In this document: one piece after another, positions 3,111 to 30,308 of the stretch
How positions within the stretch are numbered: position 1 is the stretch's first letter
Layout: each line of letters opens with the position of its first letter
UHGV virus genome: UHGV-0218987
Reading direction: 5' to 3' (one strand)
DNA length: 30,308 nt
From: a virus
Notes under the pieces: model-generated
What the model saw: only the letters and a program-made list of their open reading frames with translations
What the model was told of the DNA's origin: nothing
Databases searched by the model: none
Position numbers and translations under genes: made by a program

Positions 3111-3137
3111 AACCATATGTGTTTTAATTTGGTAACA
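3111..3137 (-). promoter_or_regulatory. Copy (i) of conserved regulatory cassette (GTTACCAAATTAAAACACATATGG) upstream of the lysis cassette
   Basis: The minus-strand read TTGTTACCAAATTAAAACACATATGGTT is homologous to the cassettes at 5987-6010 and 24999-25022; it contains a TGT-N12-ACA arrangement and lies about 60 nt upstream of the holin start, just after the tailspike terminator. Confidence 0.45.
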
Positions 3138-5986: not shown

Positions 5987-6010
5987 ATTACCTAAAAAAC
6001 CACATATGGA
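5987..6010 (+). promoter_or_regulatory. Copy (ii) of conserved regulatory cassette (ATTACCTAAAAAACCACATATGGA)
   Basis: Homologous to the cassettes at 3111-3137 (minus) and 24999-25022; located in the divergent intergenic region between the tailspike and the 6129 gene. Confidence 0.45.
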
Positions 6011-6036: not shown

Positions 6037-6053
6037 ATTACCTTTCAGGTAAT
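6037..6053. promoter_or_regulatory. Perfect inverted repeat ATTACCT-TTC-AGGTAAT (operator-like)
   Basis: 7-bp perfect arms with a 3-nt spacer; same motif family as 25061-25077, 7485-7499 and 6416-6434. Confidence 0.5.
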
Positions 6054-7456: not shown

Positions 7457-7499
7457 TTGCAGACTGTGGGTGAATAGCGTACTATTACCTCAAGGGTAA
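7457..7499 (+). promoter_or_regulatory. Sigma70-like promoter (TTGCAG-N17-TACTAT) overlapped by inverted repeat TTACCT-CAA-GGGTAA
   Basis: -35 at 7457-7462 and -10 at 7480-7485 with a 17-nt spacer; the inverted repeat at 7485-7499 (5 of 6 arm positions complementary) overlaps the -10 and +1 region, suggesting repressor control. Confidence 0.5.
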
Positions 7500-7559
7500 A
7501 CGGATTGGTTTCATTTTTATTAATCCGTGTAATGAACTTATGAGATATGAGGTAATGTC

Positions 7560-8345: not shown

Positions 8346-8357
8346 GTGACATGTCAC
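8346..8357. repeat. 12-bp perfect palindrome GTGACATGTCAC (copy 1 of 3)
   Basis: Exact palindrome immediately 3' of the 8359..8919 stop codon; identical copies at 26035-26046 and 28486-28497. Confidence 0.8.
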
Positions 8358-8358
8358 G

Positions 8359-8919
8359 CTACATTGATATATGATTCATAAAGTAGCTTAAAGATTTACT
8401 TCCCAGAAAAGAAATTTCTTTTCCTGGATATGTCGCAATAATTGAGCATGACTTATCCCCGTTAGAGGTAACAAATCCTGAATAACCTACTTGTTCTTTA
8501 CCATTTTGTTGCTTGGCTAAAAAGTAGAGGTAGCTTATCTTTTTGCCCTCTGGGTAAAACTCTGCCAAACCAGTATCGGTGATTGAATATTTTATTCTCC
8601 CGCCTTGAGTAACGTTTTCCATCTCAAGTTTAGCTATGTCTTTTCTGTTGTATTCAGCATTGATTTTCCTTTCGAAATCAATGTTGTTTTCAAATGAGTA
8701 GGAAGCAACAGTCTGAATAGATGGGAACACGTTTATCTGGATGCCTCCACAGTCGGCACAGGTATAAAGGTATGAATCAGATGGAATCCCCATAAAAGAA
8801 AACTGAGTTACCTTAAATTTATCGTTATCTCCAAAGTATTGAAGTTCGCATTTAACATTTTGCCCTGCAAAAGAAAATGCAGACATCAATATTGAAACAA
8901 AAAATATAATTGCCTTCAT
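8359..8919 (-). CDS. Secreted (signal-peptide) protein of unknown function; AT-rich cargo gene appended to the late operon
   Basis: Signal-peptide-like N-terminus MKAIIFFVSILMSAFSFA; start overlaps the stop of the 850-aa gene (TAATG); visibly AT-rich; followed by a terminator. Confidence 0.7.
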   Translation of the reverse strand: MKAIIFFVSILMSAFSFAGQNVKCELQYFGDNDKFKVTQFSFMGIPSDSYLYTCADCGGIQINVFPSIQTVASYSFENNIDFERKINAEYNRKDIAKLEMENVTQGGRIKYSITDTGLAEFYPEGKKISYLYFLAKQQNGKEQVGYSGFVTSNGDKSCSIIATYPGKEISFLGSKSLSYFMNHISM

Positions 8920-11474: not shown

Positions 11475-13168
11475 ATCCCCCGGTTAATCATACAGGCGGC
11501 AAATGCCCGGAAAGCGTTGCTCATGCTATTGTCGCTGGCGTCGGCACGAATATCATTGAGTTTCTGGCGCAACGTGGTCGCAAGATCAGGGTTATCGACA
11601 GCGATATCGTCAAGCAGGGCGTTACTCAGGTTGAGCTCGTTATCAAGGTCTGCAGCGGCAGCGGTAATTTCATGATCTGCCTTTTGCGTTTCTTGATAAA
11701 CCCGATCGGCTGTTTCGCTTGCTGGGCGAGCCGTTTCATCAACCTGCCGTGCCGGGTTCTGTATGCGATGGATGGCGCGTTCACGCAGTGCCGGTTTGTG
11801 CAGTTCATAGAAGGGCTCAACATCTGGGCTACGTCCTTCCATCATGTGTGCCAGCGCAGCGCGATACGCCTGCTGGTTCACGTTCCAGTCAGCATCCCTG
11901 ATGGCGCTTGCGGCAGTGCGAACTGCGCCAGCGACCGGCGACATCTGCATGCCGTCCAGGATCTGCTGCGCACGCTCGGAAATGGTGACTTTCAGATCGT
12001 CGGGGATATCGCCGCGGGAAATCTGAGACTGGCGCCAGCGCGCCTGCTCTGCTGTCGCGTTCTGCTCCAGCGATGTGTTGATCTCCTGATTGCGTGCAGC
12101 GATGGCGTCTTTCTCGGCCTGAATCTCTTTCAGTGCCCTAGAGCGCGCATCCTTAAACTTCATCCGCTGCCCCTGATACTTTTTGGTGCGCTGCTGCAGC
12201 GTCGCATCAAGCGAGTCAGCATGACGTTGATTAGCCGCAAGCTCGGCACGCAGGTCGGCAACGTTACCGATCTGCCCGCTCTGTAACTCCTGCTGGCGCG
12301 CCATATAGTCAGGAACCACGTCGTCATAAGCCCGGCTGTATGCGTAGCTCTCCGCTTCACTGGAAATGGCCGCCGCCAGATCTGCGTTAGCGCCAACCTC
12401 AGGGATATTCACGCCCGCCGGAATGTTGTCAGGCGTTATCACCGGGGTTGGCTGCGCATCGCCAGAAAACGCCGGGGACTCTCCCGTTGCAGCATCGGGA
12501 ACGCGACGCGGTCGCACGATATCGGCGATAAGGCCGCCGCCGGCATGCATTAGACCGCCAGCCATCGTGTTAAAGAAAGTACTTTCCAACGCGTTGCTAT
12601 AGGTGAAGTCGTCACCTTCCGCCGCCGCTGCCAGCCCGGTAAGCGGCACGGTCACCACCGCCTGCGCTGCCCCCATGCGTGCACCAGCAACAAATCGCTC
12701 GCCAAATCGGCCAAGCACAGAAGCCGCCTTTGCTTCTCCAGCGAACGGAACCAGCGCCAGCGCCACGTTACCAGGATCTGCCATTGAACCAGCTAGGCTG
12801 GCTGCGAAATTAAGCGGCGTGGCTACCCACCCGCTCGGTGCCGACATCGCGATCTGCTGGCGTGCCAGAGAATCTTTGCGTTCGGCAATAACATGATCGA
12901 GAAAAGCCTGCGTAACGCCAGAATCTGGCACGTTTATGCTCTTTACGCCGTACTGCTTCAGGAGCTCATCCGCTTCCTGCTTACTGATAACTGTAGAGTT
13001 TGGGTCATTCGCCAGCGAGTCGGCCTGCGCAAAGCGGTAGCCGGACATGACCGGCCCCTCTTCAAATCCCTGCTTAAGGGAAGAAAGCAGCGATTCGCCA
13101 AGCCCTGCTGGCGCGTTGCCAATTGGCTGGTTAATTCCCTGTCCCGGATCATCTGTGTAAATTGGCAT
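11471..13168 (-). CDS. Internal virion / DNA-ejection protein (565 aa)
   Basis: Coupled to flanking genes by 4-nt overlaps; Ala/Gly-rich with a coiled-coil C-terminal half; assignment by position. Confidence 0.55.
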   Translation of the reverse strand: MPIYTDDPGQGINQPIGNAPAGLGESLLSSLKQGFEEGPVMSGYRFAQADSLANDPNSTVISKQEADELLKQYGVKSINVPDSGVTQAFLDHVIAERKDSLARQQIAMSAPSGWVATPLNFAASLAGSMADPGNVALALVPFAGEAKAASVLGRFGERFVAGARMGAAQAVVTVPLTGLAAAAEGDDFTYSNALESTFFNTMAGGLMHAGGGLIADIVRPRRVPDAATGESPAFSGDAQPTPVITPDNIPAGVNIPEVGANADLAAAISSEAESYAYSRAYDDVVPDYMARQQELQSGQIGNVADLRAELAANQRHADSLDATLQQRTKKYQGQRMKFKDARSRALKEIQAEKDAIAARNQEINTSLEQNATAEQARWRQSQISRGDIPDDLKVTISERAQQILDGMQMSPVAGAVRTAASAIRDADWNVNQQAYRAALAHMMEGRSPDVEPFYELHKPALRERAIHRIQNPARQVDETARPASETADRVYQETQKADHEITAAAADLDNELNLSNALLDDIAVDNPDLATTLRQKLNDIRADASDNSMSNAFRAFAACMINRGM

Positions 13169-24998: not shown

Positions 24999-25022
24999 AT
25001 TACCAATTTAACCACATATGAT
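24999..25022 (+). promoter_or_regulatory. Copy (iii) of conserved regulatory cassette (ATTACCAATTTAACCACATATGAT)
   Basis: Homologous to 5987-6010 and 3111-3137; followed by a TTGACA hexamer at 25040-25045 and the inverted repeat at 25061-25077. Confidence 0.45.
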
Positions 25023-25039
25023 TTATTTATCGTAGATAG

Positions 25040-25077
25040 TTGACATTTAACGCATGAATTATTACCTTTAAGGTAAG
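25040..25077 (+). promoter_or_regulatory. Promoter-like region (TTGACA) with inverted repeat ATTACCT-TTA-AGGTAA
   Basis: Consensus -35 hexamer; the operator-like inverted repeat sits where the -10 would be; lies upstream of the tRNA and Gp49-like module. Confidence 0.45.
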
Positions 25078-25398: not shown

Positions 25399-25475
25399 GT
25401 GGCATTAGCTCAGTTGGACAGAGCAACCGCCTTCTAAGCGGTTGGTCGCAGGTTCGAATCCTGCATGCCGCGCCA
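25399..25475 (+). tRNA. tRNA-Arg (anticodon UCU), argU-like, phage-borne
   Basis: Cloverleaf folded by hand: acceptor stem GTGGCAT / ATGCCGC (one G-U pair), D-arm GCTC…GAGC, anticodon stem ACCGC / GCGGT with loop CTTCTAA (anticodon TCT), T-arm GCAGG-TTCGAAT-CCTGC, discriminator G, encoded CCA. Confidence 0.85.
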
Positions 25476-25673: not shown

Positions 25674-26030
25674 ATGAGCGACCAGCAAATCGAAAAAGAA
25701 ATCGTTGAGAAAGGCAAAACCGCTCCGCGAGTTACGCCTCAATATATCGAAAGCATCATTCTTGAAGAGCATTTCTTTACTGCTTATGACGGCATTCGTG
25801 CTGCCAATATGGGCGTTGGCGATTCATGGACAGCGCATAAATCTACAGACCTCCTGACTTTCTGCGTATTGGTACTGAAGAATGGCTTCACCGTCACCGG
25901 AGAGAGTGCCTGTGCAAGTCCGGAAAACTTTGATGCGGAAATTGGTCGGAAGATTGCCCGGCAGAATGCTGTAAACAAAATCTGGATGCTCGAAGGTTAC
26001 TTGCTGAAGCAGAAGTTAAGCGAGCAATAA
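25674..26030 (+). CDS. Gp49-like phage protein (N4 gp49 / Sf6 gp66 family), function unknown
   Basis: 118-aa ORF with AGGTGAG RBS; motif block TFCVLVLKNGFTVTGESACASPENFDAEIGRKIA…KIWMLEGYLL matches my recollection of this family. Confidence 0.6.
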   Translation: MSDQQIEKEIVEKGKTAPRVTPQYIESIILEEHFFTAYDGIRAANMGVGDSWTAHKSTDLLTFCVLVLKNGFTVTGESACASPENFDAEIGRKIARQNAVNKIWMLEGYLLKQKLSEQ

Positions 26031-26034
26031 CACC

Positions 26035-26046
26035 GTGACATGTCAC
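26035..26046. repeat. 12-bp perfect palindrome GTGACATGTCAC (copy 2 of 3)
   Basis: 4 nt after the Gp49-like stop codon and about 75 nt from the 3' end of the large terminase gene. Confidence 0.8.
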
Positions 26047-26120: not shown

Positions 26121-27596
26121 TTAAGCATAGGGATCGTAATCTGTGATGGCCTTGCCTTGCTGGTTCTGCTGACCGGGAATTCGCAGACGCTTCGACACAG
26201 GGAACGCAAACGTCAGCAGTAGCGCATCGCCTTTACCAGGAGAACGCCCAAGTCGCTCTTTGATATCTTCCTTCGGTTCGATAACGATTTTACCGTCCAC
26301 TCGAACTTTGTACTCTGCTGCCGACAGGTCGTCCGCTGTTTCCTGGTCATCAAGCATGCCGCCCAGCCTCAGCCATGTCTTGCATGAGTTGAACATCTCC
26401 CCACGCTTGTTGAGCATCTGCGGGTCAGTAGACGCGCCACCGAACGGAACAAGTTGCCATGTACGACCCCAGCCGTCACCGATTGACTTCAGACCAGTTC
26501 CGTAACCGAAGTCGATGAACACTGCGTCAGCCTGGTACTGGTCTTCAAAGTCAGCGATACGCTTCGCCATAATCAGATCGTCAGTGGTCTTGTTGCCGGT
26601 CCACAGCACCTTACTATGCAGCCCCTGCCGCAGGTATATCACAGCGTCATCAACACCGGAGTATGCCGGGTCAACGCCGATTATCACCGGAGCATGTGCC
26701 ACCTGCGCAGCGGTTATCACCCGTTTCATTGCCTCGTCAGTAAGTCCGGTAGGGATAAACTGCAATTCAGATGCATCAGGGAATATTCCGCGCACACGGA
26801 TTTTAACGAAGTCACTGTCTTCCCCGTAGTCATCAACCCATTTCTGCAACTGCTGTTTGTTGGTGCCTTCCACCGTCCGGCTGTCAATCTGCGCAGTTTT
26901 CCAGCGGTGTTTATACTTGCGGAAACATTCACGGAATCGCCCGGTATTACGCGTCGGGTTTCCGAACGCCACCCAAATAATCTCAGTGTCTTCGTCCGTA
27001 AGCGCACCCTCGGCAACTTCCCACACCAGATCCGCAATGTTCGACGCTTCATCGAATACCACGATGATGCGTTTGCGCTCGTTGTGTAGTCCTGCGAATG
27101 CCTCAGTGTTGTGCTCAGACCAGGGGATTGCGTCAGCTCGCCACCGCTTGTCGTGTCCAGGATCATTGCTGTACATCGCGGTAGCGGTGCAGGTGAACCA
27201 GTCTTTCGTGATAGCAAGGTTCGACCACTTGATAATTTCAGGCCAGGTCTTCGTTCGTAGCTGGTTGTCGGTGTTGGCGGTCACCACGACCTTACAATCC
27301 TCGCAAGTGGACATGCCCCAGTTGATCAGCATTGAGATGAATGCGGATTTACCAATACCGTGACCCGAAGCACGTGCCAGCATAAGCGGCTGATAGCGCG
27401 TCTCTGGATTCTGCAGGTGATCACGTATCTCTCGGAACGCATCAGCCTGCCACTGACGTGGACCTGTGGCATGTGCTAATTCAGTCCCCTCTTCCCCCCA
27501 CGGGAACGCATAGAGGGCATAGCCAAGCGGATCGTGAGTGAACCCTGCAATATCCTCGATCAACTGCTCTTCAGGAGATAACGCTGTATCTGTCAC
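26121..27596 (-). CDS. Terminase large subunit
   Basis: Walker A-like P-loop GHGIGKS near the N-terminus of a 491-aa ORF; start overlaps the stop of the upstream small-terminase-like gene. Confidence 0.8.
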   Translation of the reverse strand: MTDTALSPEEQLIEDIAGFTHDPLGYALYAFPWGEEGTELAHATGPRQWQADAFREIRDHLQNPETRYQPLMLARASGHGIGKSAFISMLINWGMSTCEDCKVVVTANTDNQLRTKTWPEIIKWSNLAITKDWFTCTATAMYSNDPGHDKRWRADAIPWSEHNTEAFAGLHNERKRIIVVFDEASNIADLVWEVAEGALTDEDTEIIWVAFGNPTRNTGRFRECFRKYKHRWKTAQIDSRTVEGTNKQQLQKWVDDYGEDSDFVKIRVRGIFPDASELQFIPTGLTDEAMKRVITAAQVAHAPVIIGVDPAYSGVDDAVIYLRQGLHSKVLWTGNKTTDDLIMAKRIADFEDQYQADAVFIDFGYGTGLKSIGDGWGRTWQLVPFGGASTDPQMLNKRGEMFNSCKTWLRLGGMLDDQETADDLSAAEYKVRVDGKIVIEPKEDIKERLGRSPGKGDALLLTFAFPVSKRLRIPGQQNQQGKAITDYDPYA

Positions 27597-28192
27597 TGAT
27601 TACCATCCTGACGTTCTTTGAGTCGCTTCCTGGCTGCCGCTATGCGATCAGCAATTGTCACATTCACATTAACATCCAGGCGTTCTTTGAATGCGTTGAC
27701 GTCGACGTGCTTACCAATCAGTTCGAGGTTCTTCACCTTGTCAGGCCATTTAATTTTTTTGAGGATTGTCTCTATCGAATCCTCGTTCATGTTCATGATG
27801 GTCGATGACAGATCAAAGCCACTAAGCGTAGTGCGCCAGATTTTCGGCCACTCACGGATTGGTTTAAGGCTCCCATCGTCGTTGAGGATATCGATCACGT
27901 CCATCTGGTCGATCTCCACTAGGCGCATGAGAACGTAATCAGCACTGACGCGCATTCGTTTGTTGCGCTCCTCCATCAACTCGGCAATCCGTTTTTGAAT
28001 GCGTTCATCGCGCATCATGACACAGGCTTTAACTGCCGCTGTATTTGGGGAGAATCCTGCGTTAATCGCTGCCTGAGTCTGGTTTTCAGGCGTTTTGATG
28101 TATGACTGGCAATAAGCCTCCTGCATTGCTGTTAGTGGCTTAAATTGCGTTGATTTGCGTTTATAGGTTTTAGGTTCAGCAGGCATCATAAC
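27593..28192 (-). CDS. Terminase small subunit (putative)
   Basis: Gene immediately upstream of and overlapping the large terminase; start taken at ATGATG 28192 (MMPAEPK…, GGTGG RBS) rather than the listed 28267. Confidence 0.55.
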   Translation of the reverse strand, partial: VMMPAEPKTYKRKSTQFKPLTAMQEAYCQSYIKTPENQTQAAINAGFSPNTAAVKACVMMRDERIQKRIAELMEERNKRMRVSADYVLMRLVEIDQMDVIDILNDDGSLKPIREWPKIWRTTLSGFDLSSTIMNMNEDSIETILKKIKWPDKVKNLELIGKHVDVNAFKERLDVNVNVTIADRIAAARKRLKERQDGNQ

Positions 28193-28263
28193 CACCGTGG
28201 TAATAGTTACCGTTGTGGTAATAGTACCATGCAAAATAAAGCCGCCATAGTTGGCGGCAGTAT

Positions 28264-28476
28264 TCAAAGTCCATCAAATTCATCGTAAAAACTCTCGTCA
28301 AGATACCCTTCCCATTTACCGCGAATGAAAATTACATCCTCGCCGCAAGGGTGCTGACTGTCGATAACTATATCCCTCCTGGCGCAACCATACTTATGCA
28401 TGAGAAATTTAACCTCTTTCGGAAAATTTGCTGAGTTATCTCTCATATCTTCAAGGTCGTAGCGTATTTTTGGCAT
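28264..28476 (-). CDS. Hypothetical small protein
   Basis: ORF with AAGGTG RBS before the ATG at 28476 (the listed start at 28497 is a GTG inside the palindrome). Confidence 0.4.
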   Translation of the reverse strand: MPKIRYDLEDMRDNSANFPKEVKFLMHKYGCARRDIVIDSQHPCGEDVIFIRGKWEGYLDESFYDEFDGL

Positions 28477-28485
28477 AACACCTTC

Positions 28486-28497
28486 GTGACATGTCAC
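28486..28497. repeat. 12-bp perfect palindrome GTGACATGTCAC (copy 3 of 3)
   Basis: Spans the stop codon of 28494..28832 and the region just upstream of the 28476 start; about 300 bp upstream of the small terminase gene. Confidence 0.8.
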
Positions 28498-28832
28498 ACT
28501 ATTAATTTCGTTTCATGCCAGCCTTTGGTCACCCAGCATTGCGAGTCACCATTACACGGGCATGAATTCACAGGAACTCTCTCGCCGCACTTACCGCAAC
28601 GTTTTCTGCTGATCGATTTTATACGCCCGCGCACGCGTGCATCATCCTGGCGGATCAGTAACGCTATATACTCACCAAATTCGTAAGGCGCGCGCCCGGG
28701 GCGACGCGTGGCACAGTTACGCTCCAGCATTTCAATTTCCTGAGCATCAAGCACAATTTCCAGCTTACGCACACCGGATTCAGCTTGTCTGGCTCTCTGA
28801 GCGGCTTTGCGCTCTGCTGCTGATTTAGCCAT
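28494..28832 (-). CDS. Putative DNA-binding regulator with C-terminal Cys-rich zinc-ribbon motif
   Basis: N-terminal basic helical region (KAAQRARQAESGVRKLEIVLDAQEIEMLE) and C-terminal CGKCG … CPC … C cluster; ATG at 28832 with AAGGTG RBS; translationally coupled to the ASCH-like gene. Confidence 0.45.
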   Translation of the reverse strand: MAKSAAERKAAQRARQAESGVRKLEIVLDAQEIEMLERNCATRRPGRAPYEFGEYIALLIRQDDARVRGRIKSISRKRCGKCGERVPVNSCPCNGDSQCWVTKGWHETKLIV

Positions 28833-29106
28833 CAATATTCACCTTTATCGCGAACACCTTTACCGGTTTATCGCCGAAGTGGGGATGTGTGATTGTCTTG
28901 ATTTCATATCCGTCATACGGAACATCAATTCTGCGGCTGGAATCGTCGCGCTTCGGATATCCCTTTGTGATAATCAGGCGGTCATACTTACGGTTAACGA
29001 GGCGCTTATTCCAGTAGTCATTACACAGGCGATACTCTTCCGTTTTCTCCCCGCGAATCATGGCATCGAAGTATTCACCTTTAACGGCAAGTTGCAGGTT
29101 AGCCAT
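28825..29106 (-). CDS. ASCH-domain protein
   Basis: Contains GEKTEEYR, an exact fit to the ASCH signature GxKxxExR; start at ATG 29106 with GGAGGTGA RBS and TAATG overlap with the upstream stop. Confidence 0.6.
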   Translation of the reverse strand: MANLQLAVKGEYFDAMIRGEKTEEYRLCNDYWNKRLVNRKYDRLIITKGYPKRDDSSRRIDVPYDGYEIKTITHPHFGDKPVKVFAIKVNIDG

Positions 29107-29366
29107 TACCTCACCTCCAGTCTCCATACAGCCTGACCAATCCGGCTGGCATGGGTATCTTTGGATACTGTTCCGTCTTTAGCCAGCTCCATAAGAATTT
29201 TGCGCAAATCTGCCGAACGCCATTCTTCATCAGGAAATTCCTTCTCCATTGCCAACCGCAGATTCCAGGTTGCCATCCTGAATGGATATTTCCCGCCGAG
29301 AGCTTTATCTTGCAGGGCAGCCCGGGAACGCATCACCTGCAAAACCTTCTCTTTTACATCCATCAT
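29106..29366 (-). CDS. Hypothetical protein
   Basis: Start taken at ATGATG 29366 with AGGAGG RBS and an ATGA stop/start overlap with the upstream gene; the listed start at 29423 is less likely. Confidence 0.5.
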   Translation of the reverse strand: MMDVKEKVLQVMRSRAALQDKALGGKYPFRMATWNLRLAMEKEFPDEEWRSADLRKILMELAKDGTVSKDTHASRIGQAVWRLEVR

Positions 29367-29701
29367 TTCGCCTCCTGCGGCGGTTCTGGTAGCAGCATCC
29401 AGTACAAGGCGTTCCCTAACCACGATAAAGTGCCGTCGCTCAACTCCACGTATTCCTCTTGTACCTGTCCTGCCATATACTCACCGTGCTTTGAATAAAT
29501 TAAAATCCAATCATCTTGAGCGGGCATTCGCTCACTACAGCTTATCCAACCACCCGGACTTACCGGAGAGTTGCCAGTCTTACGCATGGCAATCTCCACG
29601 ATTTCAACCATATCTCCTGGCAGAATTTTACAAAGCTGGCCAAAGCGCCTCTGCTGCCTGGCATACTCGAGGATGTGCTTCAGTTTGGTTCGATTAATCA
29701 T
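29363..29701 (-). CDS. Phage protein, DUF551-like C-terminal domain
   Basis: ATGA stop/start overlap with the upstream gene and GGGAGA RBS; C-terminal WISCSERMP…DDWILIY resembles the DUF551 pattern from memory. Confidence 0.4.
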   Translation of the reverse strand: MINRTKLKHILEYARQQRRFGQLCKILPGDMVEIVEIAMRKTGNSPVSPGGWISCSERMPAQDDWILIYSKHGEYMAGQVQEEYVELSDGTLSWLGNALYWMLLPEPPQEAK

Positions 29702-30084
29702 GATTTATCTCCCTTAAGCATGGCTGCACGGCAGGCGTTCCAGCCTCTCACCTCTGCAATAGCTGCAACAGCATCAACTGTGTACATGCTAAGAGGGTTA
29801 GGCATTGGTTTTTCTTCCGGTACTACTGGAACGGGTGGAGCGGCGTAGACCTCAATAATTCCATTATCAACAGGCCATTCTCCATCCTTGAGGTAGTCAC
29901 TTGTGCCGTCAACTTGCTGTTCTGCAATGTGGAATGCACCTATTGGTTTTGCTTCCAGTGATGCCAGCGCAATCCGTGCCAGCTCTTCCGCTTCTTCTGC
30001 TGGCAGTACAACGTTGCTACCAGGTCCGTATGTTTCGCGCCACTCCTTGATTGTCAGCAGTCGCTCTTTGGTAATAGTGATCAT
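29698..30084 (-). CDS. Hypothetical protein
   Basis: 128-aa ORF; start overlaps the stop of the truncated upstream ORF (ATGA) and stop overlaps the start of the DUF551-like gene. Confidence 0.5.
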   Translation of the reverse strand: MITITKERLLTIKEWRETYGPGSNVVLPAEEAEELARIALASLEAKPIGAFHIAEQQVDGTSDYLKDGEWPVDNGIIEVYAAPPVPVVPEEKPMPNPLSMYTVDAVAAIAEVRGWNACRAAMLKGDKS

Positions 30085-30308
30085 GCCGCGTTTCCTTCTT
30101 TCTTATTAACAATTACACCGTCATATATTTCATTAAGGTGCCCTCTCAACTCCATGCGCCTTAATGCAGATAACATGTAATCGCATTCAACCTGCTTATT
30201 CCCAATAAAAGGTTTATCTTCAGGGTTACCCCAACAGCAATTCCCCTTGGGCCATCCATGTACTTTCCGTACTCTTCCGTTAACAACGTGAAGTAATCCC
30301 CAGCCAGG
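30081..30308 (-). CDS. Hypothetical protein, 5'-truncated by the window end
   Basis: Minus-strand frame hand-translated as …GWPKGNCCWGNPEDKPF…LSALRRMELRGHLNEIYDGVIVNKKEGNAA*, open to the window edge and ending in an ATGA overlap with the next gene. Not in the supplied ORF track. Confidence 0.4.
   Translation of the reverse strand, partial: PGWGLLHVVNGRVRKVHGWPKGNCCWGNPEDKPFIGNKQVECDYMLSALRRMELRGHLNEIYDGVIVNKKEGNAA

Follow-up and report, generated by a model that had tools for sequence, protein, structure and literature searches.

The small genes that precede the terminase genes in the virus genome UHGV-0218987 raise the question of how the early transcription unit ends before the packaging genes and what part may be played there by gene E, the cysteine-rich gene of this string. 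The stretch of DNA analysed, referred to below as the window, is 30,308 nt long. All genes of the small-gene region (28264–30308) lie on the minus strand, where their 5′ to 3′ order is Z, A, B, C, D, E and F, followed by a terminator-like hairpin, two operator-like repeats, terS and terL. As judged from the sequence, the region is the distal accessory end of the early-right operon, which also carries the replication genes, of an Escherichia coli prophage of the Uetakevirus type, similar to phages epsilon15, phiV10 and TL-2011b. The window is attributed to a Uetakevirus-like prophage because epsilon15 has the same layout; the order runs from the repressor and cro-like genes through the replication genes, a variable string of small genes and gene E to terS–terL and the portal gene. 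The window DNA is 93–98% identical to parts of phages TL-2011b, ZX5 and PAS61, O157 typing phages 9 and 10 and many E. coli prophages. The feature on which the present analysis is centred is a 12-bp inverted repeat, GTGAC-NN-GTCAC, that contains the stop codon of gene E and accompanies the E family in phages with unrelated backbones. This association of motif and gene is newly reported here.

An inverted repeat at the end of gene E

Gene E (28494–28832, minus strand) encodes a cysteine-rich protein of 112 aa belonging to the family of epsilon15 gp49, N15 gp46 and PHROG 536. A perfect 12-bp palindrome, GTGACATGTCAC, occupies positions 28486–28497 and contains the TGA stop codon of the gene, and it is a candidate binding site for the E protein. 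The window contains three exact copies of GTGAC-NN-GTCAC, versus 0.029 expected in the shuffled window. Both additional copies have the same sequence and are located between the end of a gene and an intrinsic-terminator hairpin. The copy at 26035–26046 lies between the terL stop and a convergent plus-strand gene, abutting the hairpin AGCCAGC...GCTGGCT, and the copy at 8346–8357 lies between the stop of the minus-strand gene 8359–8919 and the terminator hairpin AGGCCGCTTTCGCGGCCT with its T-run. Epsilon15 also has three copies (2142, 19517 and 39612) at the same three relative places, i.e., at the stop of gp49, after terL and at the stop of gp18, the last structural gene before a terminator.

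At the loci of close E homologues, the motif, with AT in its centre, overlaps the stop codon or lies 7 nt past it in 77 of 80 cases. The register in which the last sense codon ends in G and is followed by TGA and then by C-NN-GTCAC is found in epsilon15 as well. It is also shared by lineages with other central dinucleotides, namely TG in N15, phiKO2 and Kpn74, CT in Pantoea AH07, GC in Yersinia 201.16 and AG in the Paraglaciecola/marine clade. The motif is placed 2 to 7 nt past the stop in ZF40, Chlobot, Tolumonas and two other contigs, and within the 3′ coding part of the gene in four lineages, one of which reads it as VTGH; a second member of the family has VTGH at that point, too. The association spans phages of Escherichia, Salmonella, Pectobacterium, Pantoea and Yersinia, N15-like phages and marine phages, at 31–100% protein identity.

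The arms of the motif are invariant and the central dinucleotide is free, as expected for two 5-bp half-sites of a dimeric protein. Since this half-site-like pattern follows the family across unrelated backbones, E is the obvious candidate binder. Phage N15 has three copies, all with the TG/CA centre: one inside repA, one in the intergenic region after gene 33 and one at gp46 (the extra copies are at 33237 and 28550). No copy was found in phage P22, which is devoid of the E family. RNA folding of the palindrome yielded no consistent hairpin, which favours a site acting at the DNA level. The literature search for the exact palindrome returned no match, and a search of the phage collection for two further genomic contexts in which the palindrome occurs gave none either.

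Phage TL-2011b carries GTGACATGTCAC at positions 11500 and 32282, and the second of these copies follows the ant gene and has the same terminator as the copy at window position 8346. On the plus strand of the window, a moron-like gene (25674–26030) has a palindrome-plus-terminator end of its own and adjoins a gene for tRNA-Arg (anticodon TCT; 25399–25475, plus strand), which is located between terL and the portal unit.

Composition of the E protein family

At 50% identity, the E family falls into about 150 clusters, all with proteins of 105–135 aa, from Enterobacterales phages and from vibrio, Aeromonas and marine gammaproteobacterial phages and prophages. Epsilon15 gp49, gp20 of phiV10 and TL-2011b, N15 gp46 and phiKO2 gp45 belong to the same family as E, with 35–99% identity. 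The homologues occupy the far right end of the epsilon15, phiV10, SPN1S, SPC32H and Tyrion genomes, immediately ahead of terS on the circular map, and E is the sole small gene present in every Uetakevirus-type record among the matches listed. The Uetakevirus homologues have the same position as E, that of the last early gene before terS, and the motif overlaps their stops likewise; the window differs from those phages in the extra gene F between E and the terminator. Gene E matches PHROG 536, named “transcriptional regulator”, with an E-value of 1.6e-54, while no family was found for it in Pfam scans and no relative by sequence search against PDB chains. The name “transcriptional regulator” in RefSeq is an annotation only, and no experimental characterisation of any member of the family was found in the literature searched.

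The domains and motifs of the family were counted in an alignment of 58 diverse members. The N-terminal half consists of a conserved basic helix, in which R8 and R13 are nearly invariant, a strand-like segment and two helices. Within the conserved stretch PY-x3-EY-x3-LI, the glutamate corresponding to E54 in the window is nearly invariant. The model NF008671, describing the “LexA regulated protein” YbfE, is matched by 22 of the 58 members (best E-value 5.6e-5), all below the cut-off of 62 bits; the score of the window protein is 13.5 bits (E 0.071). YbfE is a member of the CopG/ribbon–helix–helix (RHH) family. Few members match RHH_5, RepB-RCR_reg, RHH_1 and the plasmid RepA2/CopB model (PRK13702), all at sub-threshold scores. 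E. coli YbfE and the plasmid replication regulators of the CopB/RepA2 type share with E the basic helix, the stretch G-x-[RK]-[KR]-[LV]-E-x-x-L and the two helices; E differs from them in an extra C-terminal four-cysteine module, and its YbfE-model scores are far under 62 bits. The name of PHROG 536 together with the sub-threshold YbfE matches makes E a plausible nucleic-acid-binding regulator. DNA binding, if real, would more likely be effected by the N-terminal RHH-like half.

In several contigs, the sequence past the E palindrome contains LexA-box-like elements, CTGT-N8-ACA (e.g., tactgtttaaatataca), which is curious given the similarity of the family to the “LexA regulated protein” YbfE.

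The cysteines C40, C79, C82, C91 and C93 of gene E are invariant, and the pattern CxxC-x(4-12)-C-x(5-10)-C is present in 57 of the 58 members. The C-terminal part resembles F-plasmid TraR, lambda Orf73 and the DksA/TraR family in having CxxCG-x-x-[LI]-P ... G-[DE]-x-x-C after a long helix; proteins of the TraR type are also small and are encoded among the early accessory genes of phages and plasmids. In phages, early accessory regions frequently contain TraR homologues (PMC9239242). The family profile matched TraR and YbiI among PDB entries at an E-value of 0.03. The hhalign comparison with a TraR alignment, which was shallow and contained only close relatives of TraR, gave a probability of 70% and a score of 30.5. 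Column shuffles scored 10.4 ± 1.9 and the reversed alignment 20.7, so that much of the TraR signal reflects the cysteine pattern. The NCBIfam TraR/DksA models yielded six member-level matches, the best with an E-value of 3.2e-4.

However, E lacks the features described as critical or defining for TraR function (PMC9239242), namely an N-terminal DxxDxA at the tip of the helix, the zinc finger CxxC-x17-CxxC and a helix at the C-terminus that contacts RNA polymerase. Neither DxxDxA nor CxxC-x(14-20)-CxxC was found in any of the 58 members. The last conserved cysteine is followed by only about 10–13 residues, which leaves no C-terminal helix; the fourth cysteine is displaced; and the helix aligned with that of TraR is internal, behind an additional N-terminal domain of 46 residues. 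Pfam scans of the C-terminal halves of ten members detected neither zf-dskA_traR (PF01258) nor any zinc-finger family, and the AlphaFold model of the four-cysteine part has a predicted local distance difference test score (pLDDT) below 55. Gene E is best described, on the strength of these comparisons, as a YbfE/CopG-like domain joined to a four-cysteine knuckle that is possibly a distant relative of the TraR finger. It may share the metal-knuckle fold with TraR, but the criteria published for a functional TraR exclude it, and it is neither a TraR nor a demonstrated zinc ribbon. The description of E as a cysteine-rich zinc-ribbon DNA-binding protein in the first-pass annotation is thus retained for the cysteines and for the plausible regulatory role. 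The zinc ribbon itself is reduced to a four-cysteine pattern that matches none of the zinc-ribbon families.

Possible action at operon ends

The reading that we prefer, with a probability of roughly 50%, is that E is a small dimeric, site-specific DNA-binding regulator acting at the ends of operons. The basic N-terminal helix and the YbfE/CopG-like RHH region would read GTGAC-NN-GTCAC, and the C-terminal four-cysteine metal knuckle would stabilise the dimer or contact a partner. One of the putative sites contains the stop codon of E itself, and at the others the motif separates the final stop codon of a transcription unit from the intrinsic terminator. The bound protein would modulate RNA polymerase at these operon ends, either as a roadblock reinforcing termination or by permitting read-through from the early operon into terS–terL, and E may also autoregulate by means of a roadblock at its own 3′ end. 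It is from the linkage of motif and gene that we infer the binding of an E dimer and its effect on termination, read-through or autoregulation. The idea of autoregulation comes from a pure analogy with lacI, also a regulator with a site overlapping its own coding end. The auxiliary operator O3 is located at the 3′ end of lacI, and the protein bound there reportedly stalls RNA polymerase, which results in non-stop transcripts and autoregulation.

Several observations weigh against the action of E at this site. All matches of the family to RHH and TraR models are sub-threshold. The AlphaFold model of E, built from a shallow alignment, has a pLDDT of 57.9 and is too poor to support a fold search; helices 30–43 and 52–75 are correctly placed for an RHH fold, but it contains no β-strand. 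No copy of the motif was found at four homologue loci (Yersinia 42.18, Aeromonas 13AhydR10PP, Photobacterium and one metagenome contig). Vibrio K303 has two copies with the AC centre, of which the nearest lies 226 nt downstream of the E-family gene and the other 31 nt before terS. One of the N15 copies is within repA, as mentioned above, and no terminator follows the copy at gp46. Finally, when 82 occurrences of the 14-mer TGTGACATGTCACG were sampled from IMG/VR, only 19 were located at an E gene, and many copies abut terminators with unrelated sequence beyond.

The latter observations lead to the alternative that survives best, which is possible but clearly less likely than not to be correct. 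According to it, temperate phages of enterobacteria carry the 12-bp repeat as a generic element associated with boundaries or terminators, its presence at the stop codon of E reflects the places at which modules join, and the function of E is unrelated to it; as variants, recombination might be concentrated on the repeat at such joints, or a different protein, of host or phage origin, might bind there. The remaining 63 of the 82 sampled sites have no E gene within 600 nt. Many pairs of contigs cease to be homologous precisely at the motif, E has widely varying partners downstream and many copies of the motif abut terminator hairpins. E is encoded within about 9.5 kb in 22 of the 79 contigs carrying the 14-mer. 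However, the association of the motif with E persists at 31–57% protein identity and with unrelated flanking DNA in marine, Pantoea, Yersinia and N15-like phages. The motif is held in the same codon register and is retained even when it is read as codons, and copies within one genome share the central dinucleotide. In addition, all 16 phage records, complete or partial, that contain the unit of terminator plus motif are Uetakevirus-like and come from E. coli; they represent one lineage and not independent evidence. At least 10 of them also figure in the list of E matches; for three more, which are fragment records, the E-family match of the same isolate is on a separate record; and YDC107_2 (18.6 kb) is not among the E homologues listed.

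Similarity between the IMG/VR loci often stops exactly at TGTGACATGTCACG, with the 3′ end of E or a GGCCGC...GCGGCC terminator on one side and many unrelated sequences on the other. This makes the palindrome resemble a joint between mosaic segments of enterobacterial temperate phages.

A more far-reaching form of the preferred reading appears rather unlikely. The E family would then be a new class of regulators, loaded at GTGAC-NN-GTCAC between the last stop codon and the terminator, whose TraR-like knuckle touches the passing RNA polymerase. E tethered to its site in this manner would be a minimal terminator or antiterminator switch that decides between ending transcription and running on into the packaging genes, and its own stop codon would be included in one of the sites for autoregulation.

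An intrinsic-terminator-like hairpin, GCCGCCAACTATGGCGGC, followed by TTTATTTTGC (28231–28258, minus strand; the hairpin at 28258–28241 and then a T-run), closes the small-gene operon 50 nt before terS. Its folding energy is −17 kcal/mol (z −3.8; 0 of 200 shuffles), and it is kept in TL-2011b though gene F is missing there. Two tandem operator-like sites, ATAACCACCGTGGTAAT and GTTACCGTTGTGGTAAT (28188–28222), follow, each one mismatch away from ATTACC-N5-GGTAAT. Five matches to this sequence are found in the window (6037–6053, 7484–7500, 25061–25077, 28188–28204 and 28206–28222), versus 0.03 expected. The epsilon15 record annotates ATTACC-N5-GGTAAT as binding sites of the prophage repressor, located upstream of terS, of gp3 and the portal gene and of the tail fibre gene, as well as in the immunity region. 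The operator-like sites of the window, upstream of terS, the portal unit and the tailspike gene, correspond to the annotated ones. This correspondence suggests that the repressor directly controls at least these late units.

The terS gene is assigned here to 27593–28189 (minus strand, 198 aa), with an ATG start at 28189. The Prokaryotic Genome Annotation Pipeline (PGAP) places the start at a TTG codon at 28267, which gives a protein of 224 aa (27593–28267). The ATG is more likely because translation from the TTG would pass through the terminator and the operator-like repeats and because the protein of 198 aa has the same length as that of epsilon15. The stretch from the terminator to terS yielded no sigma-70-like promoter. 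Gene E had been placed directly upstream of the terminase genes; in fact, gene F, the terminator-like hairpin and the two operator-like repeats separate it from the terS start.

The earlier suggestion that E is a zinc-dependent late activator of the Ogr/Delta or Q type, acting on the cassette-bearing promoters at 3111–3137, 5987–6010 and 24999–25022, is now very doubtful. It has in its favour that E is the last gene conserved across Uetakevirus-type records before the packaging genes, that no Q- or Ogr-like gene occurs among the eight window proteins scanned and that the cassette CATATGTGGTT, conserved in TL-2011b, is found exactly twice upstream of late genes. However, neither E nor its neighbours match the Ogr_Delta or Q families by Pfam or PHROG, and the cassettes do not contain GTGAC-NN-GTCAC, the motif linked to E. 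Two of the three cassettes lie 27–39 bp from ATTACC-N5-GGTAAT sites (those at 6037–6053 and 25061–25077), so the late units may be controlled by the repressor; no such site was found near the third cassette, at about 3111–3137. A terminator stands between the operon of E and terS. Members of the E family also adjoin the late activator gp40 in N15 and occur in P2-like Yersinia phages and in a lambdoid exo-xis region, i.e., beside other late regulators and in non-late contexts. The searches of the literature on late regulation of Uetakeviruses and on boundary sequences found nothing specific, and the ZX5 paper is limited to the repressor, antirepressor and integrase.

The cassette CATATGTGGTT followed by the extended −10-like element GGTAATA(A/G) occurs exactly twice in the window, at 25010–25020 and 5998–6008 (both on the minus strand), and a weaker copy is located at 3114–3124. 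The same cassette and −10-like element are found at the equivalent places of TL-2011b, 14875 and 35641.

Also very doubtful is that E works as a factor of the TraR/lambda Orf73 type that enters the RNA polymerase secondary channel and reprograms host transcription with no DNA binding, since the profile and hhalign matches and the frequency of TraR homologues in early accessory regions are set against the absence of the DxxDxA tip, the second CxxC and the C-terminal helix.

The small-gene string around gene E

The gene starts called here coincide with the PGAP calls in two E. coli chromosomes with 96–97.5% identical DNA. The junctions Z/A, A/B and B/C are ATGA overlaps and the junction C/D is a TAATG overlap. 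Genes D and E overlap by 8 nt (ATGGCTAA), and E and F are separated by a 17-nt gap with a Shine–Dalgarno-like GAAGGTG; the latter junction would read GTGA only with a less likely GTG start. Six or more genes had been described as joined by ATGA or TAATG overlaps. The genes are indeed densely packed and have overlapping codons, but only four of the six junctions are of these kinds. The layout is that of a coupled operon, with all genes on the same strand, overlapping or abutting codons and a sole strong terminator after F. Phage TL-2011b contains 14 adjacent pairs of same-strand coding sequences with 1- or 4-nt overlaps, distributed over the early, packaging, structural and lysis genes; hence, stop/start overlaps are not peculiar to the small-gene region.

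Gene Z (30081–30308, minus strand), represented by its 3′ part of 75 codons, runs off the end of the window and belongs to PHROG 9263. Gene A (29698–30084, minus strand, 128 aa) is an Ea22/EaA-like mosaic accessory protein that has no Pfam family and matches positions 116–183 of PHROG 60. Gene B (29363–29701, minus strand, 112 aa) matches positions 203–282 of the same PHROG and has a DUF551 domain (PF04448) at residues 51–109, covering profile positions 1–68 of 68 with 38.5 bits against a cut-off of 22 (E 2.1e-9); as this score passes the Pfam gathering threshold, the DUF551-like assignment is confirmed. Gene C (29106–29366, minus strand, 86 aa) belongs to PHROG 2814 and is named “eaa protein” or hypothetical by PGAP, and gene F (28264–28476, minus strand, 70 aa) belongs to PHROG 1541. 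Genes A, C, F and Z match only PHROG families of no known function. Gene F is dispensable, given that it is deleted in TL-2011b, where a 9-codon remnant is left.

The segments of PHROG 60 matched by A and B are consecutive parts of one long EaA-type profile, and the two genes are joined by ATGA. Genes A and B (29363–30084) look like a split or recombined EaA/DUF551 gene, and their relatives carry single longer DUF551 genes of 561–606 nt.

Gene D (28825–29106, minus strand, 93 aa) had been predicted to encode an ASCH-domain protein with an exact GxKxxExR signature. The four residues of the signature (G19, K21, E24 and R26) are invariant in 32 homologues, and NCBI names the homologues “ASCH domain-containing protein”. 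The score against Pfam ASCH (PF04266, PUA-like clan), 14.6–14.9 bits, is below the gathering threshold of 21.2, and 13 of the 32 homologues match this family at E ≤ 1 (best 0.021). The sequence search against PDB chains returned nothing usable. The AlphaFold model of gene D has a pLDDT of 89.8 and a predicted template modelling (TM) score, pTM, of 0.79. Its best Foldseek matches in the PDB are all ASCH/PUA-like: 2z0t, 3iuw, 1xne, 5gus/5guq and 9kyh/9kyf, named as PH0355, EF 3iuw, PF0470, ZmASCH and YqfB. The probabilities reach 0.97 with TM scores of 0.48–0.58, and the E-values are only 0.03–0.4. The ASCH fold, a PUA-like β-barrel, is accepted for gene D on the basis of this model and of the motif, although the Pfam score stays under the threshold. 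E. coli YqfB, Zymomonas ZmASCH, PH0355 and EF 3iuw have the PUA-like fold and GxKxxExR in common with gene D, which differs from them in its length of 93 aa, in an identity of only 12–19% and in its own T-H-x-H-F-G and G-Y-P motifs.

Further residues invariant in the gene D family are G49-Y50-P51, D55, R59 and T73-H74-x-H76-F77-G78. These additional motifs may mark an active or ligand site different from those of YqfB and ZmASCH. P22 NinX, which has the same length as E and whose name is annotated in the related phage ZX5, was considered as a relative of D or E and turned out to be unrelated to both.

The string as a whole is mosaic, and phage records match at most 62% of it at a single location. 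By sequence, the small genes other than E (Ea22/EaA-like, DUF551, “eaa”, ASCH and F) are mostly exchangeable mosaic accessory open reading frames. The nin region of lambda and the ea and exo-xis genes of P22 and lambda are likewise strings of small, overlapping, mosaic and mostly dispensable early genes. Strings of the lambda/P22 type contain Ea22, EaA/DUF551, eaa and similar genes between the essential early genes and the late genes. The difference is in the end of the string, which in Uetakeviruses is a terminator directly before terS and in lambdoid phages Q and the lysis genes.

The small-gene region is ordinary in itself and has already been annotated in the public records of phiV10, epsilon15, TL-2011b and thousands of E. 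coli prophages, and the function guessed for it earlier is mostly unsupported. Two habits of annotation are corrected by the analysis, namely the guess of a zinc ribbon or late activator and the over-long terS start of PGAP. The E family is present in every Uetakevirus-type record listed. The value of the locus is in the conserved pairing of an uncharacterised family of small proteins with a precise 12-bp site, found at the stop codon of the gene itself and beside terminators.

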